This document shows, in pieces, positions 25,395 to 53,081 of a DNA stretch of 61,332 nucleotides. The stretch is from a virus (taxonomy: Duplodnaviria > Caudoviricetes). Under the pieces are notes generated by a model. It did no database searches and had not been told where the DNA came from. It was given only the letters and a program-made list of their open reading frames with translations. The stretch's first letter is position 1. Each line of letters begins with the position of its first letter. The stretch covers positions 1 through 61,332 of the IMG/VR virus record IMGVR_UViG_3300005253_000079, one strand, 5' to 3'. Made by a program: the position numbers and the translations under genes.

Positions 25395-26906
25395 CTACCT
25401 CCCATGACTAGCTATCAGACCCTCTAGTGTCAAGAGCGTCTCCTCTGGAGTATACACCTTTGGCCGTCCTACGGAAAGCCCCTTTGGTCCTATGTAGTAT
25501 TTTGGGGCGTCCCCAACCTGACCACTACCCTGGAATATGTGACGAACCAGGTATCGTGCTGCATCAGGAGCGTGATCCTCTAGTTTAGTATCAATGTCCT
25601 CGATGTTATGCTTATCAGATATCATAAGAGGCAGAGTACGAGCAAGGTTAGGACACGACTTCATAATATACATTCGAGGCGGCGTGAGAACCCCACCATC
25701 AGGAGCTTCCTTCCAGTCGAGGAGTTCTCTAATTAGCTTCCATCCAGGAATACGCTCATTGTTACCACGATAGACAGTTGTCGTCTTCCCAAATGTGTCA
25801 TCCCAATCCTCTGCCATGCTTTTGATTCGCTCACCCTTTACATTCACCTTGCTGAACAGAGACGGATCTAAGACTACTCCCTTTAGTTTCTCAGATGAAT
25901 CTGTAGTTACCTGCCAAGCCTTGAAAATCTGCTCCTGGGCAGTAACCCCTTCTCCATACTGTTCTCGATAGAACCATACGCTCTGGGTTCCTGGCGGTCT
26001 AGCTGCCCATAGAGTCGCATGAGGAGCGTTAAACCCATAGTCGTGACCAATCCAACGATCCCAGTCAGGAGGGATATCGAAAGGCTCAACGATGTGAATT
26101 TCTGAGCGCCACCTCTGGAAGAACTGCCCTGTAAATATATTCCAGTTGCCGTATAGTTTAGCCTGTTGCTCTTCGTATGGAAGACCTCGTAGCGTGTCCC
26201 TATAAGTCGGGTCGCTCTTCATCAGCGTGTAATTATCTTCAACGCTTGCAGGTATAAAGACTCTAGTATATGATCCACTCTGACGAGGCGTCCTCCAGAC
26301 TGTCATAGGCGGATACTGATCAACAAAATACTCCTTGACCCAAGAGTGACCGATTCCCAGAGGTGTAGCAGCCGATCGTATTCGGCGTCCGGGCCACCAA
26401 GGTTTAGTTGATCGGCACCGCGATCGTAAGTATGTGTAGGTATATTCCGAAAAGTGAGTCAGCTCATCAAATCCCATTGCATCAAATTCTGATGTGTCGT
26501 AGGTTCTAGCTTCCTCGTCGCGCTCACAGAACCGTAAGAAGAACATTGATCCGTTGTCAAAATGCATGACGTGAGAGCCAGAGGAGTACGTTGCTATAGA
26601 CGAGGGTATTTCCTGCTGAAGAGCGATGATGTGAGTATCTTCTAGTTGGCGATAAGACTGACGGAAGAGCACAACCTGAGCACCAGGATATGTCATACAG
26701 TAGGTAACAAACCATGCACGGAGAGCGTAAGACTTACCGCCTCCCGCAGCTCCCCCATAGAGGACTTCTTCAGCATCCGCTTGCATAAACGCTGTCTGCT
26801 TACCCTCATGGATCGGATAGAGCAGACCCCGCTCCTCAGACGGACCGGACTTACGAACCAGTTGCTGCTGCCGACTAAGTCTAGGACGTTGTGGCTTCGT
26901 CGGCAT
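25395..26906 (-). CDS. terL: Terminase large subunit
   Basis: YGGAAGGGKS Walker A, FDELT Walker B, ATP coupling motif, GHSWVK, nuclease DYG and DHAPDAARY. Confidence 0.97.
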   Translation of the reverse strand: MPTKPQRPRLSRQQQLVRKSGPSEERGLLYPIHEGKQTAFMQADAEEVLYGGAAGGGKSYALRAWFVTYCMTYPGAQVVLFRQSYRQLEDTHIIALQQEIPSSIATYSSGSHVMHFDNGSMFFLRFCERDEEARTYDTSEFDAMGFDELTHFSEYTYTYLRSRCRSTKPWWPGRRIRSAATPLGIGHSWVKEYFVDQYPPMTVWRTPRQSGSYTRVFIPASVEDNYTLMKSDPTYRDTLRGLPYEEQQAKLYGNWNIFTGQFFQRWRSEIHIVEPFDIPPDWDRWIGHDYGFNAPHATLWAARPPGTQSVWFYREQYGEGVTAQEQIFKAWQVTTDSSEKLKGVVLDPSLFSKVNVKGERIKSMAEDWDDTFGKTTTVYRGNNERIPGWKLIRELLDWKEAPDGGVLTPPRMYIMKSCPNLARTLPLMISDKHNIEDIDTKLEDHAPDAARYLVRHIFQGSGQVGDAPKYYIGPKGLSVGRPKVYTPEETLLTLEGLIASHGR

Positions 26907-27989: not shown

Positions 27990-28346
27990 CTACAGATTCG
28001 CTAGTAAGTCAAGATCAGCAATAAGAGAGACGTACTCCCTAGCTCGCTCCTCAGCCCACGGACCAGAGAAGATTGTCACATATACTTGTCCATCTCGATC
28101 ATAGTCGATCGCCTCTACTATCCACTCATCGCGTGATCTATCGCTGGGAAATATTTCGTGTTCTATCCTCATCACTCGATCAACCTCTCTATAAGCTTGT
28201 CTGCTAGCTAGTCCCCGACTACTTGACATAACGCCGTTCCCTGCCGCCTTCGGCGCTAATCTTACGACTAACGATTGTACCGTGTCCATTGTGATGGTAC
28301 CATCATACTGTGAACTTTCAGAATCTCTACACATGATATAGATCAT
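27990..28346 (-). CDS. Hypothetical protein (real coding part probably the C-terminal half)
   Basis: WIVEAIDYDRDG..YVTIFSGP.AEERAREY; GAGGT SD before internal start. Confidence 0.5.
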   Translation of the reverse strand: MIYIMCRDSESSQYDGTITMDTVQSLVVRLAPKAAGNGVMSSSRGLASRQAYREVDRVMRIEHEIFPSDRSRDEWIVEAIDYDRDGQVYVTIFSGPWAEERAREYVSLIADLDLLANL

Positions 28347-28651
28347 AAGAGATCGGCCTCAATGTATTTTGCCGCCGTCCGTAAAAGATCCGGATCGTCA
28401 AGAAATAGGCCCAAGCCGGAATTACATTTCCCGCAGAGTAGCCCACGAACCTTACCAGTACGGTGGTTGTGATCCACACCAAGTTTTCTCTCGTCGGGAA
28501 AGGGAGTAACGTGACAAATAGCACAGCCCCCCTCTTGTTCAACAAGCAGGTCCTCATACTCCCCCTCAACAATACCATATTGAACATACAGTCTATAGTC
28601 TCTTTCCGACAGCTTCCTTACCGGAACCCTTTCAATATCATTATCATCCAT
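28343..28651 (-). CDS. Endonuclease VII-like (beta-beta-alpha-Me) nuclease
   Basis: YGI....Y..L...Q.G.CAIC...VDHNH.TGKVRGLLC..CN.GLG. Confidence 0.9.
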   Translation of the reverse strand: MDDNDIERVPVRKLSERDYRLYVQYGIVEGEYEDLLVEQEGGCAICHVTPFPDERKLGVDHNHRTGKVRGLLCGKCNSGLGLFLDDPDLLRTAAKYIEADLL

Positions 28652-28684
28652 TCAACTTATACTCCTACTAACGCGGGCTAGAGA

Positions 28685-28870
28685 TCATAAGTAGAAGACT
28701 AGCCAAGTCCGTATTGCCTTATATGCAGCCTGGAACTTGGTGTCGCCCGAACAGGTCATTCCACGAGAGCCAAAGACGAACGTGGCTTCCCAACTATCCC
28801 AGTTGCCGTAATAAACCTTACGATGATGCGGGATCCGGCTAATTTCAAGACGAGGCCAGATTAGTTTCAT
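28685..28870 (-). CDS. Small hypothetical protein (MKLIWPRLEI...)
   Basis: AAGGAGGT SD before ATG at 28870. Confidence 0.5.
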   Translation of the reverse strand: MKLIWPRLEISRIPHHRKVYYGNWDSWEATFVFGSRGMTCSGDTKFQAAYKAIRTWLVFYL

Positions 28871-30274: not shown

Positions 30275-30650
30275 GATTCAAGGCCAGCCCTTAGCCACCA
30301 ACACACACAGTCGCGCTTGAATCAGTGACCAATTGCTACCGGGTTAATTGCGACTTGTTGCAGTTACATATAGTCGCAGTTAGCCTCGCTAGTCCGGGGC
30401 AAGGCGAGAGGCAGACCATCCGACTCGCGCAAGGCCCATCACGGTAGCCTAGCACGATTCCATTAAGTTTGTCCGTAAGCGAGTTCTTATACGAATCAAA
30501 CCCCGGCCTACCGGGTCACTGGTCTGTAGACGAAGGACCGCATGTTGGGTAGCATTTGACAGCAACTAAGCCTAGAAAGTTAGGATGGCTACGATTCAGC
30601 CAAGCTAAACTGTCCTAGTCGGCGGCCGGGCTTTGGATCCACAGACCACA
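30275..30650 (+). ncRNA. Candidate large structured non-coding RNA (unassigned family)
   Basis: At least 8 manually found helices, nested, with G-U pairs on the + strand and one crossing pairing; no ORF. Confidence 0.55.
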
Positions 30651-30666
30651 GCTACCGACAGCACCG

Positions 30667-30695
30667 TTGCAAAGGGCAATCGGACATGATATGAT
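30667..30695 (+). promoter_or_regulatory. Rightward early promoter
   Basis: TTGCAA-17 nt-TATGAT with TGn extension, upstream of the first + strand ORF. Confidence 0.65.
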
Positions 30696-30913: not shown

Positions 30914-31012
30914 ATGACATGTCCTGTGATGTGGGGTAGGAGGCATCAGTGCACACGCCTCAAAGCACACCTTGGAGTATGCGTGTGTAGCTGTGGGGAT
31001 GAAACGCTGTAG
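30914..31012 (+). CDS. 32-aa Cys/His-rich microprotein (MTCPVMWGRRHQC...CVCSCG)
   Basis: Manual translation; AGGGGGTTAGGCT leader, near-identical to the previous one. Confidence 0.5.
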   Translation: MTCPVMWGRRHQCTRLKAHLGVCVCSCGDETL

Positions 31013-31055
31013 GGTTGAACCTATACAAGCAAACAACGTAGCATAGGAGGTATTA

Positions 31056-31649
31056 GTGATGACTAAAGCAACAGACAAGGCAATCCTGGACGCATTAGGC
31101 GCAATACGCGAGGGACAGGATGTACTGAGCGAGCGCCTTGACACCCTCGAGGGCAACGGTAGCGCAAGCGTAGCTGCAACACGCACTCCGAAGCGGCCTA
31201 GTGGCATTACGCAAGTGCAGATACCTGAAACGCCAGAGCTGCTAGCCCTCAAGGGCCAGTGTTCGCCATCGGCGCAACGCATAGTCGAACGCCACATGCG
31301 GGTGGGAGTCGCTGACCACACCGAATACGTGGCGAAGCTGGAGACGTTCACGACTAGCGCAGGCCCTAGTGCTAGGCTGAAGTATGCGTCTCTAGGCTTG
31401 CGACTCATGGTGGCTGGCAAGTCTACGCCTGTTCGTAAGGCTAAGGCTACAGCCAAGTCGGTCGCCTCGCCCAAGGCTGGCGGACTAGGTATGCTACAGC
31501 CTGCACTTGATGCGCCTACGTCAGACTGGCGTGATTTCATCCGTGCCACTACCGACACGTCAAGCATCGGTACGTCTGCCATAGCTGGACGTGCGTGGAG
31601 GGCGAGGAACGTAGCTAACGGGCGTGACCCGAACGCTGCTGCCTCGTAA
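31056..31649 (+). CDS. Early hypothetical protein (basic, Ala/Lys-rich)
   Basis: AGGAGGT SD. Confidence 0.75.
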   Translation: MMTKATDKAILDALGAIREGQDVLSERLDTLEGNGSASVAATRTPKRPSGITQVQIPETPELLALKGQCSPSAQRIVERHMRVGVADHTEYVAKLETFTTSAGPSARLKYASLGLRLMVAGKSTPVRKAKATAKSVASPKAGGLGMLQPALDAPTSDWRDFIRATTDTSSIGTSAIAGRAWRARNVANGRDPNAAAS

Positions 31650-31670
31650 GACATAGACGACATACCCGCA

Positions 31671-31837
31671 CGGGCCTGTGAGCTGGAAGATCGTTGTAGA
31701 TCAGGGATGCGAAAATCGCCAGACGTGGGAGGCGACCCCACCAGGCCCGATTATTAGCAGGGACACAGGATTGCATCCCCCTCTGTGTTAGGTGACACTA
31801 GCACGGCGATCCTGTGTCCCTCCTACATACACGGAGG
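31671..31837 (+). promoter_or_regulatory. Riboswitch-like structured intergenic leader
   Basis: 8-bp closed multiloop, 16-bp stem, alternative 9-bp pairing, and anti-SD CCUCC next to GGAGG. Confidence 0.6.
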
Positions 31838-31842
31838 CGACC

Positions 31843-31944
31843 ATGATGACAACCTGTAGATGTCGCAAGCCTATAATCATCCTGTCATTCGGGCGTTTCC
31901 ATTGCGCTAAGTGTAAGGGTACGCTACCCATTAGTCGGAAGTAA
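31843..31944 (+). CDS. 33-aa zinc-ribbon microprotein (MMTTCRCRKP...CAKC)
   Basis: GGAGG SD; CxC...CxxC. Confidence 0.55.
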   Translation: MMTTCRCRKPIIILSFGRFHCAKCKGTLPISRK

Positions 31945-31959
31945 GGAGGGGGTTGGACG

Positions 31960-32196
31960 ATGGAAAGGTGGTTTGAATATCACTGCTACGAGGGTGAGGA
32001 TTCAGCCGACGCTGAATTATGGCATCACACCCACCAGCGCGTAATAGTCATTGGCACCGTAGCCGACGTGGATCAGCCGATGTACCGCGTTAGGTTCAAG
32101 GACGGACTAGAGTACGATGTGTTCGATGACGAACTACTCCAGTCTCCAAGTGAGTTTGAACGTCCTAGCTACGAGGAGGTAACTAGCTATGACTAG
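31960..32196 (+). CDS. Small SH3-like hypothetical protein
   Basis: MYRVRFKDG....VFDDEL; GGAGG SD. Confidence 0.7.
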   Translation: MERWFEYHCYEGEDSADAELWHHTHQRVIVIGTVADVDQPMYRVRFKDGLEYDVFDDELLQSPSEFERPSYEEVTSYD

Positions 32197-32407
32197 CAAC
32201 AGATACACGCTAAACAAAGACGCGAACGGCGATACCATGCCTCGCATAATGCCTGTCACTGGTACTACGCTAGCTGATCTATACAAGCGCATCGGTTATG
32301 AGGCTGCTAGCCAGAGGCATGATGGAGGCATGAGTAAGGCGCAGCTAGAGAAGCTGATGGAGGAGATGCGAAAGTCCGATAGGCCACGTAGGATAGGACG
32401 GAGGTAA
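32189..32407 (+). CDS. Early hypothetical protein
   Basis: GGAGGT SD. Confidence 0.65.
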   Translation: MTSNRYTLNKDANGDTMPRIMPVTGTTLADLYKRIGYEAASQRHDGGMSKAQLEKLMEEMRKSDRPRRIGRR

Positions 32408-32410
32408 CTG

Positions 32411-32593
32411 ATGGTTGACTGGAGCAAAGAACACACTGGCGCACTACATGGTAAGTATGGCGATAAGGGCCATGCTGGTTGTCCTGGTTGTATGAGCGCA
32501 GGCATGCACCTAGGCGGTACATGTGTGCTGGCCTACAGCTACGGACTACACCTAGTCAGCTTATGCCCGTTTCCAGACCCGAGGGCTGGATAG
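32411..32593 (+). CDS. Small Cys/His-rich early protein
   Basis: GGAGGT SD. Confidence 0.6.
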   Translation: MVDWSKEHTGALHGKYGDKGHAGCPGCMSAGMHLGGTCVLAYSYGLHLVSLCPFPDPRAG

Positions 32594-32606
32594 AGAGGTA
32601 GCTGTC

Positions 32607-32834
32607 ATGCCTAAAATGGTCAAGCTAATCAGCCAAGCAAAGCAATCTGCCAAGGATCAAGGCCATAACATGCTACCCTTCCAGGTTGATGGAGGCTATG
32701 CCTGGGCGCTATGTAAGACGTGTGGTAGGGAGGCATACCTAGTAGCGCGACCCAAAAATCCCAATGAGACAGATGTGAGCGGCGAGGCAGTAGCAGTAAG
32801 CTGCGGAAGTATCTATCGCAGGAGGATAGCATAG
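32607..32834 (+). CDS. Small zinc-binding early protein
   Basis: GH...CKTC...C; starts in the start cassette. Confidence 0.7.
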   Translation: MPKMVKLISQAKQSAKDQGHNMLPFQVDGGYAWALCKTCGREAYLVARPKNPNETDVSGEAVAVSCGSIYRRRIA

Positions 32835-32850
32835 TAGTCAGGAGGTAGTC

Positions 32851-32946
32851 ATGAGCAACGAATCCTTTGAACGCACAGTGACATTCCTTATGTTCCTGAT
32901 TCTGACTATGCAGTTTGCCATTTTCCTAGCCATCAAGGGAAGCTAG
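32851..32946 (+). CDS. 31-aa single-TM peptide
   Basis: Manual translation MSNESFERTVDILMFLILTMQFAIFLAIKGS; GGAGGT SD. Confidence 0.6.
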   Translation: MSNESFERTVTFLMFLILTMQFAIFLAIKGS

Positions 32947-32961
32947 CTAGGAGGTAGCTAG

Positions 32962-33114
32962 ATGGAATCTATAGGCAAGGCGGTAAAAAAGGCTGAGGCC
33001 AAGGGTATGATAGATCATGCACACTGGGACACAGCGACGTGTCAATGGGTAGCATGTCTCAGTGCCCGCTGTCCCCTTTATATAAGCATTCGGAGGTACT
33101 TACGTGTCAGCTGA
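32962..33114 (+). CDS. 50-aa hypothetical protein
   Basis: Manual translation MESIGKAVKK...; GGAGGT SD. Confidence 0.55.
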   Translation: MESIGKAVKKAEAKGMIDHAHWDTATCQWVACLSARCPLYISIRRYLRVS

Positions 33115-33436
33115 TACCCTAACGAACATGCTAAAGCTGATGTGCATACCTACCAGTATGTATGATGGCGTAGTTAGGACAAGTGACGGATACTACACGG
33201 CCCACATCAAGGGCGACGTTGGCTACAACGCATTCCTCGGCAAGCCTGGGCCTAGACATGGCGGGCCTGGTAGGAAGTGGATGCTTGATACTTGGAACGG
33301 GCTGTCACTAGACGAGAAGCGAGCTGTAGTCTACCTATCCGCTCATCCGGGAGACGGTAGTCCTATACGACTGAAGGATGACTTCGGTGTACCAGTTGAA
33401 GACGCAAGGTCGCTGTCAGGTGCATTGCCTGGGTAG
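33104..33436 (+). CDS. Early hypothetical protein
   Basis: GGAGGT SD, GTG start. Confidence 0.7.
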   Translation: MSADTLTNMLKLMCIPTSMYDGVVRTSDGYYTAHIKGDVGYNAFLGKPGPRHGGPGRKWMLDTWNGLSLDEKRAVVYLSAHPGDGSPIRLKDDFGVPVEDARSLSGALPG

Positions 33437-33469
33437 ACGTAGGCTATTATAGGATTGGAGGTAGCTGTA

Positions 33470-33862
33470 ATGCAAGATACAAACCTGATCGACCTGAGTA
33501 CCCGAGATGGATACGACATCGCTGCTGCCATAAGAGGACCAGACTTTTGGAATGATGGCGAAGCGATCAAGAGGGTCTTTACGGAGCGCATTCGCTGGCT
33601 AGCTGGCGTTAGGGGGGGATTTTCTACCAGGCGATACCTTGTTAGTCTCAGCACAGTAGCACTAATGCGGAGGGAAATTAGGCAAGCGTCTGTGTCTGGT
33701 ATAATTCCGTTAATCACTCACTACATGAGGCATGTGCGTGATGCTGCATCTGCCCTGAACGACAAGAATCTAGAACACCTTGCGGCGATCGTGCTCTTAG
33801 GACGACCAGAACTAGACTCGCTTTCGGATGAACGCATCATCGAACTAGCAGGAGGTGAGTAG
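33470..33862 (+). CDS. Early hypothetical protein (start revised to ATG at 33470)
   Basis: GGAGGTAGCTGTAATG cassette. Confidence 0.7.
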   Translation: MQDTNLIDLSTRDGYDIAAAIRGPDFWNDGEAIKRVFTERIRWLAGVRGGFSTRRYLVSLSTVALMRREIRQASVSGIIPLITHYMRHVRDAASALNDKNLEHLAAIVLLGRPELDSLSDERIIELAGGE

Positions 33863-33890
33863 CTGTCACATTAGTAAGGGAGGTAGACGG

Positions 33891-34115
33891 ATGAGGTGTC
33901 CTAAGTGTAAGAATCCATGCACTGAGTCAGACCTCGTGCCTGATATAGCCTATGACAAATCAGGTGCATTCAACGTAGTCAAGGACGAGGACGATCAGAT
34001 AGTCGAGGCAGACTACTACATAAGAGAGCGACGAGGTAGCATATGCCGGGTGTGCATAGACGAGATGCGTGGCAGGCTGAGGCCTAGGCATATGAGGGAA
34101 GGAAGGAGGCTGTAG
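33891..34115 (+). CDS. Zinc-finger hypothetical protein (MRCPKC...CRVC)
   Basis: GGAGGT SD before ATG at 33891. Confidence 0.65.
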   Translation: MRCPKCKNPCTESDLVPDIAYDKSGAFNVVKDEDDQIVEADYYIRERRGSICRVCIDEMRGRLRPRHMREGRRL

Positions 34116-34117
34116 TC

Positions 34118-34273
34118 ATGAATAGCCTAGTACCATTACTAGCCGGTATATCGCTAGGTTATAGTCTAGCACAGGCTGGTGATGTACCATACATAATAGC
34201 AGCCAACATAGGAGTGCTAGTATTTATTATTACAGCACAGCTAGAGCGTATTGCAGGTAGGAGGAAGCTGTAA
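34118..34273 (+). CDS. 51-aa membrane peptide
   Basis: Manual translation MNSLVPLLAGISLG...; AGGAGG SD. Confidence 0.55.
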   Translation: MNSLVPLLAGISLGYSLAQAGDVPYIIAANIGVLVFIITAQLERIAGRRKL

Positions 34274-34482
34274 TGGTAGCACCTATAGCGGTAGCAGGTC
34301 AAGATGAGAAGGTCTTTGACTTGCGCTTTACGCTGCGCAAGAGTAGTAGTATTGAGTCGGCTAGCATGTTAATTGTGTTGCTAGTCAGGCTGTTTGAGGA
34401 CTGGAGTATACTTGAGGATCCGACCATCGAAGACATAACAAATAGGCATGATCGTAAGCTAGATTTCGGGGATTGGAGGTAG
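34273..34482 (+). CDS. Early hypothetical protein
   Basis: Starts in a variant start cassette. Confidence 0.6.
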   Translation: MVAPIAVAGQDEKVFDLRFTLRKSSSIESASMLIVLLVRLFEDWSILEDPTIEDITNRHDRKLDFGDWR

Positions 34483-34487
34483 CTGTC

Positions 34488-34553
34488 ATGTTAGCCTGGA
34501 TTGCCGGATTCATCATCGGTTTCTTAATCAGCCTATGGCTGGCTAGTAGATAG
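34488..34553 (+). CDS. 21-aa single-TM peptide MLAWIAGFIIGFLISLWLASR
   Basis: Exactly fills the space between two perfect start cassettes. Confidence 0.6.
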   Translation: MLAWIAGFIIGFLISLWLASR

Positions 34554-34565
34554 GAGGTAGCTGTC

Positions 34566-34820
34566 ATGACTCAAGGTAAATTATCAGACATAAACTACAA
34601 GGTATGGATACAGCTCGAGAAGATCGTAACTAGTAAGGGAGGTCATAAGGATAACCCCCAAAATCGTAGCTCATATGAGAACGTTGGCCCACCAGTGGAG
34701 CTACTAGACACCAATGACTTCGAGGATGCCAACTCATTCTTAGCTGACGTTGAGCGGTTCTCAAATGAGATAGATGATAGTGAAGTCGGTAGCGTACCCG
34801 GCCTATATAACACACCATAA
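34566..34820 (+). CDS. Early hypothetical protein
   Basis: Perfect start cassette. Confidence 0.7.
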   Translation: MTQGKLSDINYKVWIQLEKIVTSKGGHKDNPQNRSSYENVGPPVELLDTNDFEDANSFLADVERFSNEIDDSEVGSVPGLYNTP

Positions 34821-34852
34821 GTACAAGCAAACACAAGTAAGCACAAGATTGG

Positions 34853-35018
34853 AGGTTGGTATACTCAAGTCTTATCCAAGGGGGAAGCGGAGTATTTCCC
34901 TGGTAGACTAGGCTAATGGCTCCATGCCATATTGTCTGATAATATAAGTGGAGACGTAAGCCTTATAAGCTGCTATATGAAACGTCATCTCTTGGGTAAG
35001 GCTTGATTATACCAACCT
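34853..35018 (+). ncRNA. Candidate structured RNA, 31-bp closing stem with internal hairpins
   Basis: 34853-34883 pairs with 34988-35018 (26 WC, 4 G-U, 1 mismatch). Confidence 0.65.
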
Positions 35019-35045
35019 AGTATAGTATAACAGGAGGTAGCTGTC

Positions 35046-35393
35046 ATGCCAGTCAGTAACAAACTAATAGGAAGAGCAGCCAGTCCAGGTATAGTACAGG
35101 GAGAGGCGTTTGTTGTTGAGTTACCCAAGACTAAGGGATTCCCTAGTAATGGAGCAGTGCTAGTGTCGCATATGACGACACCTGATCTCCTACCTGCAAT
35201 GTTAAAGTCAACTGCTATTGTTACTCAAGTAGGGGGTATAACCTGCCATGCTGCTATAGTAGCTAGAGAGTTTAGCATTCCCTGCGTTGTTGGAGTTAGG
35301 AAACTACTAGATAGGGTGAAGACAGGAACAAGGCTGATAGTAGACGGGAGCAAAGGCACAGTCGAAATCGTAGAAATCGTCGAGTCGTCATGA
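35046..35393 (+). CDS. Stand-alone PEP-utilising enzyme mobile (phospho-histidine swivel) domain
   Basis: G.AASPG.V.G, VLV..MTTPD, AIVT..GGITCHAAIVAREFSIPCVVG, VDG..G.V as in the PEP synthase/PPDK His domain. Confidence 0.92.
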   Translation: MPVSNKLIGRAASPGIVQGEAFVVELPKTKGFPSNGAVLVSHMTTPDLLPAMLKSTAIVTQVGGITCHAAIVAREFSIPCVVGVRKLLDRVKTGTRLIVDGSKGTVEIVEIVESS

Positions 35394-35557
35394 CTGAGCT
35401 ATTGCTAGTGCTGGCTGTCGCCTTTACGGTGGGCCACGTCATTGTAGACACCCATCGTATCAGACACATACACGAGCTGATACCTGCGGGCCTCCTAATC
35501 GGACATATCATATTTACAGGTGAACTAGCTCGGTGGCTGAGTTATATACCTTACTAA
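35390..35557 (+). CDS. 55-aa His-rich membrane peptide
   Basis: Manual translation MTELLLVLAVAFTVGHVIVDTH...; ATGA overlap. Confidence 0.55.
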   Translation: MTELLLVLAVAFTVGHVIVDTHRIRHIHELIPAGLLIGHIIFTGELARWLSYIPY

Positions 35558-35575
35558 CTTACTAACTTACTAACT
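35550..35575. repeat. Tandem repeat (CTTACTAA)x3
   Basis: Direct reading. Confidence 0.85.
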
Positions 35576-35582
35576 GAGAGGA

Positions 35583-36617
35583 GTGGACATAATCATGACC
35601 ACTAAGGTTAGAAAACCAAAGTCGGCGAAGAAGACGAAGGATGCACCTAGTGGCTCGGTAGGTGGTACATATGCTATGCCTATGACTATGCCTATGCCTG
35701 TGCTGCCCTCTTATCCTTCAATCGGGGGTAACTTCATTGATGCAGTGTTACCTAAGCCTAAGCCTAAGCCTAAGACTAAAGCTAAGACTAAGACTAAAGC
35801 TAAGACTAAGATTGATGTGACACTAACACCACCCGTTGCGTGTGACATCCCGGATTGCTCGGTGTGTAAGCAAGCAGGGGCCAAAGGTGCAAACCTCTCA
35901 ATCCGATCATACCCTAAAGCTTTGAGGACTGATATCGGTCTCCTTAACGAGCTTCCACTAGCCATGCATGCTGCTGACTTCTACCTACGCATGGCAATGA
36001 CAGTCCAGGGCAGGGGCGATCTTAGAGCTGGGCTAGAGTACCACGCAAACATGCTCGCGTCTGAGTTCTGTCGATACTTGAAGATAGCAACAACAGGAGA
36101 AGCGCGTCATGTATTTGGTCACGCAAATGTGAGTTCTCTAAGATATTATGGCAAGCATATGAAGGTAAAGGGCAATTATCCAGGGTTTATATCTTTCATT
36201 AGGCGTCTGGATATGATGACTTATACCGTAGCGAGAGTTGGCCGTGGTCAGGTATACAGAAACGCTGATAATATATGGGAGGGCTACGGAAAACTAGCTC
36301 CTCTATACCTTATGTTTATCTTTACGAGGCCTTCATGGAACAAAGGCTATGGAGGAGAGAAGTGGGGTCTATGTCTCAAAGTGCTTATGAACTACCTGCG
36401 AGGAAGACTCACTCCTATTGCATTTGTTGATCAGGCGTTCTCTCTTGAGCATAACGGGAGTATAGTGTACGACAAGACCGGCTGGAACCTGACTGGCCTC
36501 AAAAGAGTTCTTACCCGAGCACAGACAGGCTCATACAAATCTATAGCTGATAACTATGCTTCGAGTGATGTTGCTAAGATGTGGTATGATCACAAGGGCG
36601 GAGGTAAGAAAACATGA
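35583..36617 (+). CDS. Uncharacterised enzyme-like protein with Lys/Pro-rich tail and CxxxxCxxC
   Basis: ADFYL, GEARH, W.KGYGGEKW and FVD...EHNG....K motifs. Confidence 0.8.
   Translation: MDIIMTTKVRKPKSAKKTKDAPSGSVGGTYAMPMTMPMPVLPSYPSIGGNFIDAVLPKPKPKPKTKAKTKTKAKTKIDVTLTPPVACDIPDCSVCKQAGAKGANLSIRSYPKALRTDIGLLNELPLAMHAADFYLRMAMTVQGRGDLRAGLEYHANMLASEFCRYLKIATTGEARHVFGHANVSSLRYYGKHMKVKGNYPGFISFIRRLDMMTYTVARVGRGQVYRNADNIWEGYGKLAPLYLMFIFTRPSWNKGYGGEKWGLCLKVLMNYLRGRLTPIAFVDQAFSLEHNGSIVYDKTGWNLTGLKRVLTRAQTGSYKSIADNYASSDVAKMWYDHKGGGKKT
35751..35810 (+). repeat. Coding hexamer repeat (NCTAAR)x10 encoding PKPKPKPKTKAKTKTKAKTK
   Basis: Direct reading. Confidence 0.85.
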
Positions 36618-37624
36618 TCCAAAGAAAGATAATGTTCGACGGTCATGCTCCTCGATGGTGGAATAAGAGGAACAGACGACTACGCAGGAAGTATGAGAAA
36701 GACGGGGATATTAGTAATGACAACAGCGGTAAGGGAGGCTTTGTTAGTAAGCTGACAGATAAAGTAACAGGTTTCATTGGAGGAGGCTACCATTATAGGT
36801 CATGTGATCACTGGCGGACTGTTGTTAAGATTGGGGACAGTCATATCTTAGCAAGTGGGTTAATGGACCGGCCTAAACACCCGTTTGTGATGCCTGGACC
36901 TAAGCCCTGGCCCGACAAGGGCTTATACCTAGACGACTTATGGTCTCGACAATTAGGGGGTATATCATCGGCTGGAGTTAAGTGCCCGATCGATCCCTGG
37001 TGGCCGTATGTCATAGTTGATTGGAGTGATCGTGCAGCCATTGATGATAAGTGGTACACGCTGATTGTAAACCTGATCATCAAGTGGATGAAGTCAGGGG
37101 ATAAGGTAGAGATAGCCTGTCAGGGCGGACACGGACGTACTGGTACGCTGGTTGCAGGCGTGTTAGCTAAGGTCGAGGGCCTGTCTGCTAATGACGCTAT
37201 AGAGGCTCTGCGTGATAGGTACTGTAAACAAGTTGTCGAGTCTCACTCTCAGATATGTCAAATATACCGCTTCTTAGGCGAGAAGGAGCCAGATAAGCCG
37301 CCTATTGTACCGGCTACACCCTACTATATCGCGTTCGGGTATAAGCCACCACCAAGTAAATCTTATTTCCCGACGGGAGATACCGATCGTAAAGAGAGAC
37401 TAACAGGAGGGGTGAATAGGAAGGAAGGAACGTCAATCACAAAAAAACACGACCAGTATTATGGTAGTGACGATGATGATGATGAGTGTTTCTGTCGGCA
37501 CGACCGATGGAACCATTGGGGAGGAGGTGATGGTGTATGTAAGATGTGTCCCGCTGCGGGTGGTCAAGCCTGTAATAAGTTTAGGCTTATAGACCGCCTG
37601 ACTAATAGACCACGCTTATATTAA
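36614..37624 (+). CDS. Protein-tyrosine/dual-specificity phosphatase family (CX5R) with C-terminal Zn-finger-like motif
   Basis: DWSD acid loop, IACQGGHGRTG, LRDRYC..VVES..Q; CxCxH...H...CxxC...C. Confidence 0.9.
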   Translation: MIQRKIMFDGHAPRWWNKRNRRLRRKYEKDGDISNDNSGKGGFVSKLTDKVTGFIGGGYHYRSCDHWRTVVKIGDSHILASGLMDRPKHPFVMPGPKPWPDKGLYLDDLWSRQLGGISSAGVKCPIDPWWPYVIVDWSDRAAIDDKWYTLIVNLIIKWMKSGDKVEIACQGGHGRTGTLVAGVLAKVEGLSANDAIEALRDRYCKQVVESHSQICQIYRFLGEKEPDKPPIVPATPYYIAFGYKPPPSKSYFPTGDTDRKERLTGGVNRKEGTSITKKHDQYYGSDDDDDECFCRHDRWNHWGGGDGVCKMCPAAGGQACNKFRLIDRLTNRPRLY

Positions 37625-37646
37625 CGTTAGTATAGGAGGAGACAAA

Positions 37647-37961
37647 GTGACTAGAAGAATAGATCTGTTTGTAACAGTTGACAAGACCGGAAGCAAGGGT
37701 GGAGGGGTTGCTAATTTTAGTGCCTCTATCACATCGGGCTCCTTTCCCGAAGGAGAGGTAAGTCTAGCCCGAAAGCCGGACCATTGTTTCTTTGGTCTTG
37801 CCAATCTAGAGTCCCATAAGGGTCATGCGCCCAACTTTGCAACAAAGGCAGACTTGCAGGGATACATAGACCGTGTTAAGAAGTCTGTCGATAGCCTAGT
37901 CGAAGACTATCTTGACGCTGTCAATGTTGGGCCTACCCTGCTGAGTAGCTGGGAGATTTAG
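37647..37961 (+). CDS. Hypothetical protein
   Basis: GGGAG SD, GTG start. Confidence 0.7.
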   Translation: MTRRIDLFVTVDKTGSKGGGVANFSASITSGSFPEGEVSLARKPDHCFFGLANLESHKGHAPNFATKADLQGYIDRVKKSVDSLVEDYLDAVNVGPTLLSSWEI

Positions 37962-37988
37962 TCTATAGTATAGTCTAGTATAGACTAG

Positions 37989-38173
37989 AGCGAGGGGTTC
38001 ACCTCTCGCTTGGAGGACCGGAAGGTAATTGTTAGTCAACGCATCACCACAACCAATCTCGTAGCTCTGTCAACGCTAACGTGTGCTGAGTTAGGATATG
38101 GCGACGGGGCATACGTTAGTATAAGGGTTCCCCGACTAGCAGGTTGCTTCCGATCCTCCAAGTAAGAGGTGAA
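37989..38173 (+). ncRNA. Candidate structured RNA, ~40-bp closing stem and 13-bp inner stem
   Basis: 37998-38037 pairs with 38134-38173; 38075-38087 pairs with 38108-38120. Confidence 0.65.
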
Positions 38174-38193
38174 TAGGTTATAAGGAGGGTGCG

Positions 38194-38475
38194 ATGAACA
38201 GTGAGAAAGCGTGGGTAGATCTTTGTGACACCATCGACTCTGTTGGTGTCGATTATGCCCTAGCAGAAGACGATTTTAACTCGACTAAAGAAGTGTTGCG
38301 GGTCGCTGCCAACGCCTACGCCCTGACGTTACTGGACGAACTCCAGACTTACCTCACTGATGCGGCGCGTAGGAGTTCCCGCTCCGGGTCTGACTACCCT
38401 TACGGTGGCGAGTCTGGAATCGATGTGCCTTGGCTTATAAACCTCTTCCGCAAAGAGCGCATCAAAGGAGGGTAA
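38194..38475 (+). CDS. Hypothetical protein
   Basis: AAGGAGG SD. Confidence 0.7.
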   Translation: MNSEKAWVDLCDTIDSVGVDYALAEDDFNSTKEVLRVAANAYALTLLDELQTYLTDAARRSSRSGSDYPYGGESGIDVPWLINLFRKERIKGG

Positions 38476-38480
38476 GACTA

Positions 38481-38723
38481 ATGACTAGTGATACGCCAAA
38501 GTGTAGCTATTACGAGGGTAAGACTTACGGACTAAGTGATTGCCTGCGCGAAGTTAGCGCGTGTCCGTGTTGCAAAGGTAATGGTACGCACACCCAGGAG
38601 TGTAGGGGATATAATACGATTGACAAAATCACAGTTGACAACATCTGTCATAGTTGTCTAGGATCGGGATGGAGCGAACTATGCGACAAGCACCAAGATA
38701 AGGAGGTAGGTGGTATTGATTAA
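38481..38723 (+). CDS. DnaJ-type CxxCxGxG zinc-finger protein
   Basis: CPCCKGNG, CHSCLGSG; AGGAGG SD before ATG at 38481. Confidence 0.65.
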   Translation: MTSDTPKCSYYEGKTYGLSDCLREVSACPCCKGNGTHTQECRGYNTIDKITVDNICHSCLGSGWSELCDKHQDKEVGGID

Positions 38724-39408
38724 TGGCTATGCTAATATAGGATCAGTTAGACATGGTACTACAGGAGAGGCTATCAAGGATATATTCGATATACATTTTC
38801 CTAACGCTGGCGGAGTTGCTGATTTAACTTGGGGCAAGGGAGGGTTTTGGAGTAAGCTAGGTAGTAGTGGATTGCCTCCTAACTATATTCAGGTCATTGG
38901 CCTAGACATAGACGTATCAGGTAAGGCTCAGATCAAGTCTGACTACAGATTAGTCCCATTACAGACTCAGAGTGTAGACGTAGCGGTATTTGATCCTCCC
39001 TTTATATTCACGCCGGGCATACGAGGACTAGTGGGGGCTAAACGTTTCTTCCTCGGATCAGAGGCAGCTACAGATGGTCGCTTCTATAGCGGTAGCAAGT
39101 CAGACTCTCGCATACTAGCACCTCGCAACGCTGAAGACTTGCGGGTCCAGACCCTGTTAGTCATGATCGAGATGAGACGTATAGCTAGGATGGGCTGTAT
39201 ACTAAAGGGACAGAATCTTATTACGTCGAAGCATCCTAACTGGTGGACATACCAGGTGATCGATCACGGACATAAGCTGTGGGGTCTAGAGCCGGAGGAT
39301 GAGCTAATACAGATCAGCCCGGCTGCAAGGATGGTTGATCCTCGTTGGAAGAGACAGTACCACTTTCGCAGGCATCATGCATATTATCTTGTATATAAAT
39401 GGGATTGA
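38710..39408 (+). CDS. DNA amino-methyltransferase (m6A/m4C type)
   Basis: DLTWGKGGFW SAM motif, GLDID, VAVFDPPF catalytic motif. Confidence 0.85.
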   Translation: MVLINGYANIGSVRHGTTGEAIKDIFDIHFPNAGGVADLTWGKGGFWSKLGSSGLPPNYIQVIGLDIDVSGKAQIKSDYRLVPLQTQSVDVAVFDPPFIFTPGIRGLVGAKRFFLGSEAATDGRFYSGSKSDSRILAPRNAEDLRVQTLLVMIEMRRIARMGCILKGQNLITSKHPNWWTYQVIDHGHKLWGLEPEDELIQISPAARMVDPRWKRQYHFRRHHAYYLVYKWD

Positions 39409-40076: not shown

Positions 40077-40173
40077 TCTTCTTATGATCTCTATCCCGCG
40101 TTGAGGAAACCGAAAGGGTACAGTACAATGGTACAATCACGGTACAGTCTTAGTCAGAAGGAGGTAAAACGAA

Positions 40174-43634: not shown

Positions 43635-43918
43635 ACTGGGAAGATGAAGGAGGTTTAGTTGTGACTAGTCGAGACGAGGGTAGCAAGTGTCCCTGTTGTG
43701 GAGGATTAGGAGCACACGGCAAAGTTCCGACAGTAGAAGACCTTGAAAACGAGAGGCGTTGTAATACGTGCGAAGGCTCTGGTAAGGTAGTAACGTGCCC
43801 GTCATGCTCGGGACTGGGTCACATGTCTATGCGAGAAGCAGGACTCATCGCTTCAGCAAACACTCGTATAGAAGCACTAGAGCGCGATGAGGCCGAGCGT
43901 CCGTGGAGATATTCGTGA
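43610..43918 (+). CDS. DnaJ-type zinc-finger protein
   Basis: Three CxxCxGxG repeats. Confidence 0.75.
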   Translation: MDNSKSVLDWEDEGGLVVTSRDEGSKCPCCGGLGAHGKVPTVEDLENERRCNTCEGSGKVVTCPSCSGLGHMSMREAGLIASANTRIEALERDEAERPWRYS

Positions 43919-46380
43919 CTACCTATAACGACCTCACGTCTCTAGGTCCTAGTCAGCCTGTAGCAGAGCTTAGGTGCAAGCTGCTCAAACTAGACGGGAC
44001 TAACCTATGGGAAGACGGCAGACTGCCTATCCTAGCTAACCTATTACCTGGCGATGTTGTGCGCTGTCGTCCCTCAGCTCTACCCTTCTGGCGTGGCGCT
44101 CCCTTCGGTGTCATCGTCCAGGTAATAGAAGATCCTCCTTATGAGGATCCGATTAGATACCGCTACGGTAGCTGGCTGGTTTGGGCATTAGTCCAGGAGG
44201 GACTAGAATCATCTGTAGCTAAGGCTCTGGTGAAAAGTCCGCCCAAGTCCGATAAGCACCAGCACTGGGATGCATACCAGAGGGGCATAGGGACTGCTGT
44301 AGCGGTGTTGGATGCTCCACGTCAGGAGGCCGAGAGCGTTGCTGGACCTCCGCTCTCAAGCAAAACCTCATCAGACGTTGATGATCCGTTCTCTTGGCGT
44401 GTAGCCTCTAACAACGCTCCCAAAGGATCTATGTCGGCTAGCTATATACATGACCTGGAGCACCTGCTTAAAGATGTAAATTCCAGAGAAATAGTCGGCG
44501 TAGACGTAGAGACTGACATAGCTGGCGCTGAGCCTAACGAGGTCAAGGATACCCTAGTTGGCCTATCCCTGGTAGTCGGTAACAAGGGGGTTTACTATAC
44601 TAGAGAGTTGCTTGGAGAGTTGTGGCCCCTGTTGCAACGCGCTAGACTAGTTGGTGCCAACATCAAGTATGACCTAACGGTCATGACTAGGGCTGCTGCC
44701 GAGGACGGGTACGAGCTATCATTTACTAAGGACAACGTAGCCGGGGATAGCATGGTAGCGGCCTACCTCCTGTGCCTCCCCTCGGGCAGACTAAAGGACA
44801 CGGTTAAGTCAGAGTATGGTCATACTATGATGACCTATGACGACGTGACTGGTGGTGGGAAGCTGAAGATCTCTGAGGTTGATCCCAAGGTTACAGCCTC
44901 CTACTGCGTAGCCGATGCGTGGTGGGCTAAGAAGTTAGAAGCTGACCTCTGGGATAGGATGGTAGCAGAAGGAAGCCATAATGGTAGCTCACGGTCCTGT
45001 GTATTGTATAAGGATGTAGACCTACCTCTAATCCCTGTGTTAGTTGGGATGGAACTGAGAGGTATGAGGTTTGACAGGGATAAGGCAACCCTAGAGCTAA
45101 ATGAGACTATAGGTAATATCGATCGCACAACCTATTACATCAATATGAGGGCAAAGGGAACAGGCTTTAGCGTACCCGATCAGCGCAACGTATGCAGATC
45201 CTGTCGCAATGGTAAGAAGAAGCGAGCTACCTGCACCGAGTGTAGTGGTGTTGGAGCGCTCTTCTCCCACACGCCTGTTAACCCAGGATCAGGTCAGCAG
45301 ATCAGTCAGTGGCTTTTTGGCACAGACAAGAGCCTCGGCCATCTAGGACTACCAATACAGCGTGTCAGCCGGAAGACTAAGACTCCATCAACTGATAGTC
45401 TATCTCTACTCCGAAGCAAAGACCTACACCCTGTAGTTGGGATGCTATTGAGCTACAAACACTTAGTCAAATATAGGGGCTACCTTGAGTCTTGGCTAGA
45501 GGAGTCAGAACGTGATGGTAGGCTACACTCAGTCTTCTCCAATGCTACCGTGGTGAGTGGTCGGTTAAGCTCTAAGGAGCCTAACTTGCAGCAGGTCAGT
45601 GGGAGCTGGCGGTCCATGTTCACTGCTTCGGAGGGTAAGGTCTTACTTGCTGCCGACGAGAGTCAGTTTGAGGTGCGGATTGCTGCGTTCCAGTCACGCG
45701 ATCCTCAGCTAATGAAACTTGTTAACGCCCCCTCTGGTACGTTCGAGGGTGACTTACACGCTCAGACCATGTATCACGTATTCGGTATTCCCATTAGTCA
45801 GCATAAGGAGTTTAGTCATATCCGACAGACTGCTAAGGTCTACAACTTTATGGGCCTGTTCTATGGTGCCAAGCCTCCGTCCTTGGTGGAGCGTATTGAG
45901 AAGCTTGCACTAGAGAACCCTGAACTTAACATTAAAATTCCAACTGTTAAGGAGGCAGCCAAGGCCCTGGCCGGTGTCAAAGAACTATATAAAGTCTATA
46001 GCCAGGAGTACGTGCCAACTACAATAGCACGGGCGAGGGACAGAGGTAATATATTCTACACCGCATTTGGTAGGCCGCGAGTGATCGACTACCTTACGTC
46101 AGGTTACAAGGAAGAGAGGGAGGCGGGCGAGAGGGAGGGTGTCAACCATACGATCCAAGGCACAGCCGCAGATTTAATGAGGAAGGCTATGAATCTGGCT
46201 GATACACTGGAACATGGAAGCCTGCTAGCACAGAACCATGACGAGCTAATCTTCGATGTAGATCCAGACTGGCTAGAGTGGTATACTAATAGGGTGCGGA
46301 CGGTGATGGAATTAGGGCAGCCACTAGAGGGTGTGCCTTTAGTTGTTGATATAAGAAGCGGGCCGACGTGGGCCAAGTAG
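43903..46380 (+). CDS. polA: DNA polymerase family A with 3'-5' exonuclease, N-terminal extension and zinc-finger insertion
   Basis: ExoI DVETD, ExoII NIKYD, ExoIII YCVAD; GRLSS.EPNLQQ; motif A DESQFEVR, B RQTAKVYNFMGLFYG, C HDEL. Confidence 0.95.
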   Translation: MEIFVTTYNDLTSLGPSQPVAELRCKLLKLDGTNLWEDGRLPILANLLPGDVVRCRPSALPFWRGAPFGVIVQVIEDPPYEDPIRYRYGSWLVWALVQEGLESSVAKALVKSPPKSDKHQHWDAYQRGIGTAVAVLDAPRQEAESVAGPPLSSKTSSDVDDPFSWRVASNNAPKGSMSASYIHDLEHLLKDVNSREIVGVDVETDIAGAEPNEVKDTLVGLSLVVGNKGVYYTRELLGELWPLLQRARLVGANIKYDLTVMTRAAAEDGYELSFTKDNVAGDSMVAAYLLCLPSGRLKDTVKSEYGHTMMTYDDVTGGGKLKISEVDPKVTASYCVADAWWAKKLEADLWDRMVAEGSHNGSSRSCVLYKDVDLPLIPVLVGMELRGMRFDRDKATLELNETIGNIDRTTYYINMRAKGTGFSVPDQRNVCRSCRNGKKKRATCTECSGVGALFSHTPVNPGSGQQISQWLFGTDKSLGHLGLPIQRVSRKTKTPSTDSLSLLRSKDLHPVVGMLLSYKHLVKYRGYLESWLEESERDGRLHSVFSNATVVSGRLSSKEPNLQQVSGSWRSMFTASEGKVLLAADESQFEVRIAAFQSRDPQLMKLVNAPSGTFEGDLHAQTMYHVFGIPISQHKEFSHIRQTAKVYNFMGLFYGAKPPSLVERIEKLALENPELNIKIPTVKEAAKALAGVKELYKVYSQEYVPTTIARARDRGNIFYTAFGRPRVIDYLTSGYKEEREAGEREGVNHTIQGTAADLMRKAMNLADTLEHGSLLAQNHDELIFDVDPDWLEWYTNRVRTVMELGQPLEGVPLVVDIRSGPTWAK

Positions 46381-46647: not shown

Positions 46648-47574
46648 ATGACTGACTCGTGGCATAGCTACCCATCCGTCTACGCTCTAGGACACAGCGC
46701 CTTAGTCGGACTATTAGAAGGTGATGTTGTTGTCCAGGAGAAGATAGACGGCTCACAGTTTAGCTTCGGAATCATTGACGGTGAGCTTAAGGTCAGGTCT
46801 AAGGGCAAACTCATGGAGATTGACGCTCCTGAGAAGATGTTTGCAGGAGCTGTCAAGACAGTCAAGAACATAGCTAGTGATCTAATACCTGACTGGACGT
46901 ATAGGGCTGAGGTCCTATCGAAGCCTAAGCACAACGCCTTGAAGTATGATCGTGTACCAGAAGGGAACCTTATCCTCTTTGACATCAACATTGGGCTTGA
47001 AAAGTACAAGAGGCCGTCTGGACTTGCGAAAGAGGCTCATCGTCTAGGTCTTGAGTTTGTTCCAACGTTCTATAGTGATGATGGTGTTAGCATAACAATA
47101 GACGTGATCACCGAGTTCCTCCTCGAGGATTCCTGCCTCGGTGGCACGAAGATCGAAGGCATAGTCATAAAGAACTATAGCCGCTTTGGTAAGGACAAGA
47201 AGGTCCTCATGGGCAAGTACGTCAGTGAAGCCTTCAAGGAAGTCCATAGGACGGCATGGAGTAAGGCTAACCCTCACGCTAAGGACATTGTGCAGTCACT
47301 AGTCGAGACCTATCGGACAGAGTCAAGGTGGCAGAAGGCTGTGCAGCACCTGCAAGAACGGGGTGAGTTGGAAGGCAGCCCACGAGATATAGGTAAGTTG
47401 ATCAAGGAGACCCAAGAAGATATATACAAAGAGAGCAGTGATGATATTAAGTTTGCGTTGTTCGTATGGGCTTGGCCTAAAGTGCAGCGAGCTGTCATTG
47501 CCGGTCTGCCTGAGTGGTACAAGGAAAGTCTGTTAGCGAAGCAGTTTGAGTCGGAGGAAGATACAGATGCCTAA
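46648..47574 (+). CDS. ATP-dependent RNA ligase-like nucleotidyltransferase (Rnl2-like)
   Basis: QEKIDGSQF motif I, YRAE, LFDI, EGIVIK, K.V...FKE. Confidence 0.85.
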   Translation: MTDSWHSYPSVYALGHSALVGLLEGDVVVQEKIDGSQFSFGIIDGELKVRSKGKLMEIDAPEKMFAGAVKTVKNIASDLIPDWTYRAEVLSKPKHNALKYDRVPEGNLILFDINIGLEKYKRPSGLAKEAHRLGLEFVPTFYSDDGVSITIDVITEFLLEDSCLGGTKIEGIVIKNYSRFGKDKKVLMGKYVSEAFKEVHRTAWSKANPHAKDIVQSLVETYRTESRWQKAVQHLQERGELEGSPRDIGKLIKETQEDIYKESSDDIKFALFVWAWPKVQRAVIAGLPEWYKESLLAKQFESEEDTDA

Positions 47575-49109: not shown

Positions 49110-49214
49110 ATGGACAACGAAGCGCAGATATGGTTGATTATAGCTGTTACTACATTTGGTTATGGGTGAGGCCTGTTCGTTGGCTGGATTATCTGGGGCC
49201 AGCTAGGGGGTTGA
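49110..49214 (+). pseudogene. TM micro-ORF interrupted by in-frame TGA
   Basis: MDNEAQIWLIIAVTTFGYG*GLFVGWIIWGQLGG*; AAGGAG SD. Confidence 0.45.
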
Positions 49215-49239
49215 CACCGACTTTCTAGTATGGTAGACT
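49211..49239 (+). promoter_or_regulatory. Sigma70-type promoter for the helicase/recombination block
   Basis: TTGACA-17 nt-TAGACT with TGn. Confidence 0.75.
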
Positions 49240-49619: not shown

Positions 49620-49826
49620 ATGAGGCTTCCAAGACTTGCTCACCGCGTTTATGCTTGGTTTTTCGGCTACTACTGGCTTCCTTGTCCTTGGTGCCACCAT
49701 CATTTTGGAGGCCATGAGCGGCATGGGATTTGGTGGCAGACTACCTACAAGGATGGGTCAAAAAAGGGAGTTTCCATCTGTACGTCCTGCCAAAGTCGGG
49801 TTGAAGAACTGAGCGTCAATCTATAG
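49620..49826 (+). CDS. Small zinc-binding hypothetical protein
   Basis: GYYWLPCPWC...FGGHE...CTSC. Confidence 0.65.
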   Translation: MRLPRLAHRVYAWFFGYYWLPCPWCHHHFGGHERHGIWWQTTYKDGSKKGVSICTSCQSRVEELSVNL

Positions 49827-52819: not shown

Positions 52820-52975
52820 GGACTAACCTGGGGTGTCTGTAGCGTAAGCGCAGAGGTCAACATGATGTTGATGTATTACGCCCCAGGTGGTGCGGACGCG
52901 GTGGGAGGGAGCTATTTGGCATAGTAATATGGCAACCAACCCCTCCCTCCCGCCGATTAGTAGGAGACCGATTAT

Positions 52976-53081
52976 AATGCTAATCATAATGCTTATCTTA
53001 GGTATCGCCATAGGACTTCTCGTAGGCTTTGTTGTATTAGTTGTGGCTCTGGCAAAGATAGGAGGTAGTTTTCTTAGCTGA
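52976..53081 (+). CDS. Small TM peptide (start approximate)
   Basis: AGGAG SD followed by MLIIMLILGIAIGLLVGF... Confidence 0.45.

Follow-up and report, generated by a model that had tools for sequence, protein, structure and literature searches.

The stretch at positions 34853-35018 of this phage genome raises the question of what a long and nearly perfect inverted repeat between two genes is for: it could act as RNA once the surrounding genes are transcribed, it could release a small RNA, or it could be a DNA element whose transcript folds as a by-product. The feature, hereafter element 1, is a 166-nt hairpin on the + strand, in which a closing stem (34853-34883 with 34988-35018) surrounds an interior at 34884-34987. 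The original prediction saw in it a processing stem of the RNase III type that releases a structured, multi-hairpin small RNA, or a regulatory RNA for the phospho-module downstream.

The window, i.e., the whole stretch of 61,332 bases analysed here, is the entire virus record; a 125-nt repeat (D1) is present at each of its ends, and its estimated completeness is 97%. The only sequencing runs found to contain it, none of them on record as RNA, are three from DNA that belong to a single study of marine sediment, possibly its source. Genes lie on the - strand from position 1 to approximately 30 kb, the large terminase (25395-26906) among them, and on the + strand from approximately 30.5 kb to the end, where a family A DNA polymerase, an RNA ligase, a helicase, an amidase, a uracil-DNA glycosylase-family protein and an ERCC4-type nuclease are encoded. 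Comparison of 74 ORFs with Pfam revealed no integrase, invertase, reverse transcriptase or RNA polymerase; a 1766-aa ORF was scanned against PHROGs only, and ARAGORN detected neither tRNA nor tmRNA. Sigma-70-like sites of the form TTGACA-N15-19-TAnnnT are enriched (10 observed, 2.2 expected), and therefore, with neither an integrase nor an RNA polymerase found, the phage appears to be lytic and to rely on the RNA polymerase of its host. The best identity to cultured phages is 37% for the terminase and 29% for the DNA polymerase, and by sequence the phage is a lineage without a cultured relative. Two promoter-like sites, TTGACA-N18-TAGGAT at 30556 and TTGCAA-17-TATGAT at 30667 (region 30556-30695), which are matches to the consensus only, stand on the + strand at the head of its early block and are the presumed start of the transcript carrying element 1 and two further hairpins described below.

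Other features of this genome lie outside the question of element 1. The family A DNA polymerase (43903-46380) shares with its 12 closest relatives a clade-specific, zinc-ribbon-like insert, CxxC[RH]NG..K...CxxC..G, the cysteines of which are invariant in all 13 aligned sequences. The RNA ligase (PF09414) is encoded at 46648-47574, and a protein with the N-terminal domain of dATP/dGTP diphosphohydrolase (PF18909) at 58723-59271 may point to a non-canonical nucleotide metabolism. On the - strand, two adjacent paralogous genes of 222 aa (7680-8348 and 8428-9096) share at their 5' ends a 92-nt repeat with 71% identity (family D3). A 26-nt sequence occurs three times, at 40077-40102 on the + strand and as the reverse complement at 28670-28695 and 28325-28350; the copies lie on both sides of the divergent region and all face the same way with respect to local transcription, and the sequence is a candidate for a promoter (middle or late) or an operator specific to the phage.

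The closing stem of element 1 had been predicted correctly to the base. Position by position, its arms form 26 Watson-Crick pairs, four G.U pairs and one mismatch, i.e., 30 pairs over 31 positions. The G.U pairs (34870/35001, 34875/34996, 34881/34990 and 34883/34988) exist on the + strand only, and the mismatch is a C.T at 34864/35007, which upholds the statement that nearly all deviations from a DNA palindrome are compatible with wobble pairing on the + strand. The folds agree with this: the + strand RNA reaches -74.4 kcal/mol (z -7.5; 0 of 200 shuffles as good), 22 kcal/mol better than the - strand at -52.7 kcal/mol (z -4.6). The element corresponds to I1, the longest among the 192 inverted-repeat pairs in the window. 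A stem scan tolerant of G-U pairing, bulges and single mismatches placed it second on the + strand (30 pairs, one defect), behind another element at approximately 38 kb. The best stems with at most one defect in 14 whole-genome dinucleotide-preserving shuffles had 20-23 pairs, three of the shuffles yielding no stem of at least 20 pairs, so that the stem of element 1 greatly exceeds what chance produces. Thirty pairs with one 1x1 mismatch exceed the length of approximately 22 bp (two turns) that is the criterion for RNase III.

The interior is a different matter. The 104 nt enclosed by the stem, taken alone, give a z-score of -1.9 on the + strand (9 of 200 shuffles as good) and of +0.2 on the - strand, and are thus not significantly structured. 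The three inner 5-bp helices that had been proposed are complementary in sequence, but they are not the minimum-energy fold, which is a single continuous rod. Because of this lack of significant structure, the data do not support the release of a small RNA structured into several hairpins. Rfam 15 gave no match at the gathering score over the whole window and none to element 1 or its surroundings at E up to 10 (34600-35250), and elsewhere in 31600-38300 it returned sub-threshold noise only. Known RNA families with a curated covariance model in Rfam 15 (6S, Y RNA, ribozymes, riboswitches) were accordingly rejected. A retron non-coding RNA was rejected as well, no reverse-transcriptase domain being found in the 74 ORFs compared with Pfam or, for the 1766-aa ORF, with PHROGs only. 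An intrinsic terminator at element 1 was also rejected: the loop would be 104 nt long, the 3' flank reads AGUAUAGUAUAACAGGAGG, and the terminator scan reported none.

Element 1 lies between two genes of the + strand. The upstream one (34566-34820; 84 aa, no family) ends with its stop codon 32 nt before the element; downstream, an AGGAGG ribosome-binding site (35032-35037) follows 13 nt after the end of the stem and precedes a gene for a protein of 115 aa (35046-35393), which by Pfam is a stand-alone PEP-utilizers mobile domain (PF00391). The promoter-like sites at 30556 and 30667 are approximately 4.3 kb upstream, with only a weak terminator-like site, at 34503, in between. A possible TTGATT-17-TATAAC promoter over the 3' arm (TTGATT at 35003-35008, TATAAC at 35026-35031) proved weak, since it is absent from the consensus scan, its -10 hexamer lacks the final T, and the promoter-like sites enriched in this genome carry the full TTGACA, unlike the TTGATT found here.

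The 115-aa protein, a phosphohistidine swivel domain (PF00391, E 1.5e-25), is the first product of the so-called phospho-module (35046-37624), which continues with a 55-aa ORF, a 344-aa orphan and a 336-aa phosphatase-domain protein. The dual-specificity phosphatase domain of the latter is below the Pfam cut-off, and a CX5R-like motif, CQGGHGRT, can be read in its translation. Twenty-three relatives of the PEP-domain protein besides itself were found, mostly on short contigs, the closest two at 58% and 50% identity; the 344-aa protein has no scored homologue, and none of the module genes occurs in the five kin genomes introduced below. Regulation of this module was one of the roles proposed for element 1. 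However, hairpins of the same kind precede unrelated genes at 38194, 31843 and approximately 52977, and therefore nothing ties element 1 to the phospho-module in particular.

The first of these other hairpins, element 2, is a 178-nt hairpin of the + strand (37997-38174) with the same build as element 1: a closing stem of approximately 28 bp (approximately 37997-38024 with 38147-38174) around an interior of more than 100 nt (38025-38146; 122 nt) that is likewise not significantly structured. Its 28 stem positions comprise 24 Watson-Crick pairs, two G.U pairs on the + strand and two on the - strand, and it folds at -80.4 kcal/mol (z -6.1) on the + strand and at -79.1 kcal/mol (z -8.1) on the - strand. 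No sequence similarity between the two elements was found. Its ribosome-binding site, AAGGAGGG (38182-38189), is followed by a + strand gene for 93 aa without a family (38194-38475). Hairpin 3 (31755-31825, + strand, 71 nt) consists of 3+16+8 pairs, 27 in total, with three G.U on the + strand, and reaches -41.1 kcal/mol (z -6.9) on the + and -37.4 kcal/mol (z -4.3) on the - strand. The fourth site is a double hairpin on the + strand in the gap at 52820-52976 (z -4.8), with one G+C-rich stem of 13 bp, and it ends just before a ribosome-binding-like site.

The placement of these hairpins is regular. On a rough gene map, the genes of the + strand block mostly overlap or are separated by at most 30 nt, and four of the few gaps that exceed 150 nt hold the strong hairpins: 31650-31842 with hairpin 3 (193 nt), 34821-35045 with element 1 (225 nt), 37962-38193 with element 2 (232 nt), and 52820-52976 (157 nt). 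Hairpin 3 and element 2 each end 7 nt upstream of a Shine-Dalgarno sequence, and element 1 ends 13 nt upstream of its own. In the structural block on the - strand, three large gaps lack structure, with z-scores of -0.3, -0.7 and -1.6. No U-tract is present 3' of any of the four hairpins, and hence they are not intrinsic terminators. The sliding z-score scan with 100-nt windows is blind to stems that close over 166-178 nt. A candidate third long element at 49647-49820 was rejected; it lies inside an ORF, is G-U-rich and has a z-score of only -1.9.

Two further observations concern the surroundings of the hairpins. The centres of the three early ones (approximately 31790, 34935.5 and 38085.5) are spaced nearly equally, by 3145.5 and 3150 nt, which may be a coincidence. 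The motif TAGTATAG is enriched (10 observed, 2.8 expected), with sites directly after element 1 (35018-35029), before the gene at 37647 (37628-37635) and, twice, directly before element 2 (37964-37983); a related sequence, TAGACTAG, is present within element 1 (34904), ahead of element 2 (37981) and, at 49211-49239, as the -10 hexamer region of a promoter-like site. Both could be sites for protein binding or single-stranded sites of the RNase E type.

We hypothesize that elements 1 and 2, hairpin 3 and the hairpins of the 52.9-kb gap are processing or stability hairpins of the RNase III type in a polycistronic early mRNA, which is the best explanation available to us and one that we hold tentatively, at slightly less than even confidence. 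The + strand early block would be read from the sigma-70-type promoters near 30.6 kb as one long polycistronic RNA, and as soon as a 3' arm is transcribed, the two arms would pair into approximately 30 bp of nearly continuous double-stranded RNA. The host RNase III could then cut the stem, which is longer than the idealised two-turn substrate, given as 22 bp for the enzyme of E. coli (PMC3867540). Cuts at approximately 31.8, 34.9 and 38.1 kb would divide the transcript into segments of approximately 3 kb, each with base-paired ends that would set its stability, and only 7-13 nt would separate the start of a downstream segment from its ribosome-binding site. Even an uncut hairpin might still act as a barrier to exonucleases. 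The precedent is the early precursor of T7, described as approximately 7000 nt long with five RNase III signals, and the same account states that cleavage by RNase III can leave 3' hairpins acting as stability determinants (PMC3867540). Thus, the processing stem of the original prediction finds support in the 30 pairs, the fold favoured on the + strand, the position between co-directional genes downstream of the early promoter-like sites, the missing U-tract and the three further hairpins, and it is the structured cargo that lacks support.

Several points weigh against the processing hairpins. Pooled over the three stems, the wobble-type deviations from perfect pairing, which speak for RNA of the coding strand, number nine on the + strand and two on the - strand, a weak bias (p approximately 0.03-0.07, one-sided binomial estimate), with three of the nine derived from hairpin 3, the fold of which was chosen on the + strand. 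Hairpin 3 has a smaller + strand advantage than the 22 kcal/mol of element 1, and element 2, with two G.U on each strand and nearly equal folds, has no bias at all. T7-type sites are hairpins of approximately 60 nt with an internal loop and do not enclose more than 100 nt, and processing leaves the role of the enclosed 104-122 nt unexplained. Moreover, unstructured interiors are expected of DNA elements bounded by inverted repeats, and thus they count against a reading as RNA.

These observations lend some weight to a second explanation, in which elements 1 and 2 derive from miniature inverted-repeat (MITE-like) insertions, as remnants or as lone copies, or are other inverted-repeat DNA sites, such as those for protein binding or recombination, located in the intergenic DNA of a fast-changing early region. 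The hairpin in the RNA would then be a by-product that may nevertheless still be cut, by analogy with the Correia elements of Neisseria. We regard this as unlikely, though more probable than the alternatives that follow. The two elements are similar in size (166 and 178 bp), have terminal inverted repeats of 28-31 bp, unrelated sequences and unstructured interiors, and element 2 is symmetric between the strands. On the other hand, the wobble bias of element 1 and of hairpin 3 favours the coding strand, and a position 7-13 nt before a ribosome-binding site would be unexpected for random insertion. Terminal inverted repeats that bound approximately 70-300 bp, as in MITEs, are present in both (arms of 31 and 28 bp), but multiple copies and target-site duplications, the other marks of a MITE, were not found: each element is single-copy in the phage, and neither has a flanking direct repeat (element 1 ...GATTGG / AGTATAG...; element 2 ...GCGAGGG / AGGTTAT...). 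Patterns for both termini gave 0 matches in IMG/VR, and no copies were detected in 1.33 Mb of kin loci. The copy number refers to the phage, to IMG/VR and, for the termini of element 1, to one genome per species; copies in the genome of the host are possible.

Across 185,579 species, each represented by one genome, a scan for the termini of element 1 (11 nt each) gave a single match, in a metagenome-assembled genome of Clostridium. The matching element is 184 nt long with perfect arms of 23 bp (G006:C1:9283-9466; L084 1500-1683) and has a second copy, internally deleted to 104 nt (G006:C7:15961-16064). That it is itself an inverted-repeat element in two copies would fit the MITE-like explanation, but its similarity to element 1 is confined to the 11 terminal bases, and even in these the second copy deviates. 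Because approximately two chance matches were estimated for the pattern, the match is probably a coincidence and only a weak lead. The long copy ends approximately 25 nt before a ribosome-binding site.

Relatives of the locus were sought at several levels, since a homologue of element 1 would allow pairs to be backed by covariation. Blastn against phage records gave no near or distant DNA match, and scans of IMG/VR anchored on the PEP-domain protein, the DNA polymerase and the phosphatase gave nothing. A scan of IMG/VR with the terminase alignment returned only distant loci (28-39% identity), and a protein search found metagenome terminases at 46-64% identity. A degenerate DNA pattern was built from a clade-specific terminase motif, present in 65 of the 88 first hits and in 0 of 32 more distant ones, and it yielded 45 metagenome loci and six IMG/VR contigs, five of which were compared whole (279 kb). 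Structural and replication modules are common to the phage and these kin, the DNA polymerases being 35-43% identical, and the conserved part begins at 38710. Of the 22 ORFs located at 30.9-38.7 kb, a single one has a match in the kin, and a weak one, and blastn of the three hairpin-bearing gaps against 126 loci (1.33 Mb) gave only chance matches (E at least 2.4). No homologue of element 1 was found in phage records, IMG/VR, the 45 kin metagenome loci or the five kin genomes, and therefore no covariation backs any pair of the proposed processing stems.

By these comparisons, the early region at 30.9-38.7 kb is unique to this phage among the collections searched, and the elements belong to a lineage-specific region of fast turnover. 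Stems like those of elements 1 and 2 were found neither in the five kin genomes nor in the kin metagenome loci, and since the kin genomes have no comparable stems, long stems are not a conserved design of the clade. This counts against the processing hairpins, and a region without a counterpart in kin that lack such stems fits the recent gain of a MITE-like element.

A third explanation is that RNase III excises from elements 1 and 2 trans-acting small RNAs of approximately 110-130 nt with targets in the host or the phage. The processing stems of rRNA belong to the same length class as the closing stems of both elements, whose interiors of 104 and 122 nt contain no coding sequence, and different cargoes in a common packaging would explain how interiors can differ within one build. 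The phage also encodes the RNA ligase (PF09414) and the phosphatase of the dual-specificity type, so the chemistry of RNA ends may be in play, as far as can be inferred from these genes. Nevertheless, we consider this explanation doubtful. Both interiors are no more structured than their shuffles, and Rfam matched neither of them even when E was allowed to reach 10. Against the remainder of the phage genome they have no extended complementarity; the best stretches measure 14-17 nt and contain mismatches (E >5). In addition, hairpin 3 and the 52.9-kb hairpins have the same placement and enclose little or nothing, and hence the shared feature is the stem and not the cargo. In an extended form, which we think improbable, the phage would package two unrelated cargoes of approximately 105-120 nt between clamps of approximately 30 bp in its early mRNA, to be excised by the host RNase III as stable rods, possibly re-sealed or end-modified by the phage RNA ligase and phosphatase, and active in host takeover, e.g., as protein decoys like 6S RNA. 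Packaging of small RNAs by clamps of this length would, if true, be previously undescribed in phage. Interiors this long (more than 100 nt), which the processing hairpins leave unexplained, give small RNAs of the phage a modest chance.

The geometry of the elements, inverted repeats of 28-31 bp that flank approximately 100-120 bp directly upstream of genes, is also shared by known invertons, in which case a recombinase would flip the segment of 104-122 bp between the repeats and switch the downstream gene on or off. This appears very improbable. The 74 ORFs compared with Pfam yielded no recombinase of the serine or tyrosine type, the promoter consensus scan reported no site inside either interior in either direction, and phase variation would be of little use to a lytic phage. 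Single contigs over 31000-39000 span both elements with no joints, inverted form or variants inside, although contigs could miss a minor form.

Should the processing hairpins be confirmed, an uncultured phage would organise its host-takeover genes much as T7 does, with one long transcript that is cut at hairpins, and the hairpin-based punctuation of mRNA would be recurrent among phages, here in a lineage without a cultured relative. The elements are also landmarks for operon annotation in an early region of 22 ORFs that are almost without homologues.

Of the known systems, the Correia elements come closest in form to the MITE-like explanation. They are described as elements of 71-157 bp (broadly 70-160 bp), bounded by inverted repeats, often situated 5' of genes and co-transcribed with them, and found also in a prophage region; in the mRNA their repeats form a hairpin that RNase III binds or cleaves, an action that is putative in our case (PMC2649163). 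Correia elements occur in approximately 110-250 copies per genome, have a conserved core and insert at TA, whereas elements 1 and 2 are single-copy and mutually unrelated, have no target duplications, and have no copies in the collections searched.

The resemblance to the early RNase III signals of T7 is one of arrangement. In both cases hairpins are located between cistrons, in T7 those of a long early transcript made by the host RNA polymerase and here those of a predicted transcript of this kind, and several occur per early region, here three in approximately 8 kb. Their double-stranded length is sufficient for the requirement of approximately 22 bp, and they stand just ahead of the ribosome-binding site of the next gene. 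The signals of T7 are hairpins of approximately 60 nt in which an internal loop directs a single cut, whereas the stems described here are nearly perfect over 28-31 bp, so that both strands should be cut, two of the hairpins enclose 104-122 nt, and there is no sequence relation. In bacterial rRNA precursors, long-range pairing of the flanks of a segment creates an RNase III substrate of approximately 25-30 bp, and the enclosed RNA is released. The likeness lies in the pairing of flanking sequences into a long stem of RNase III size, and the difference in the enclosed segment, which here is approximately 100-120 nt, non-coding, not significantly structured and without a conserved stable RNA. 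By analogy, the elements would thus resemble both the T7-type RNase III signals and the rRNA processing stems in function, and would differ from them by the combination of a nearly perfect stem of approximately 30 bp with an apparently unstructured interior of 104-122 nt.
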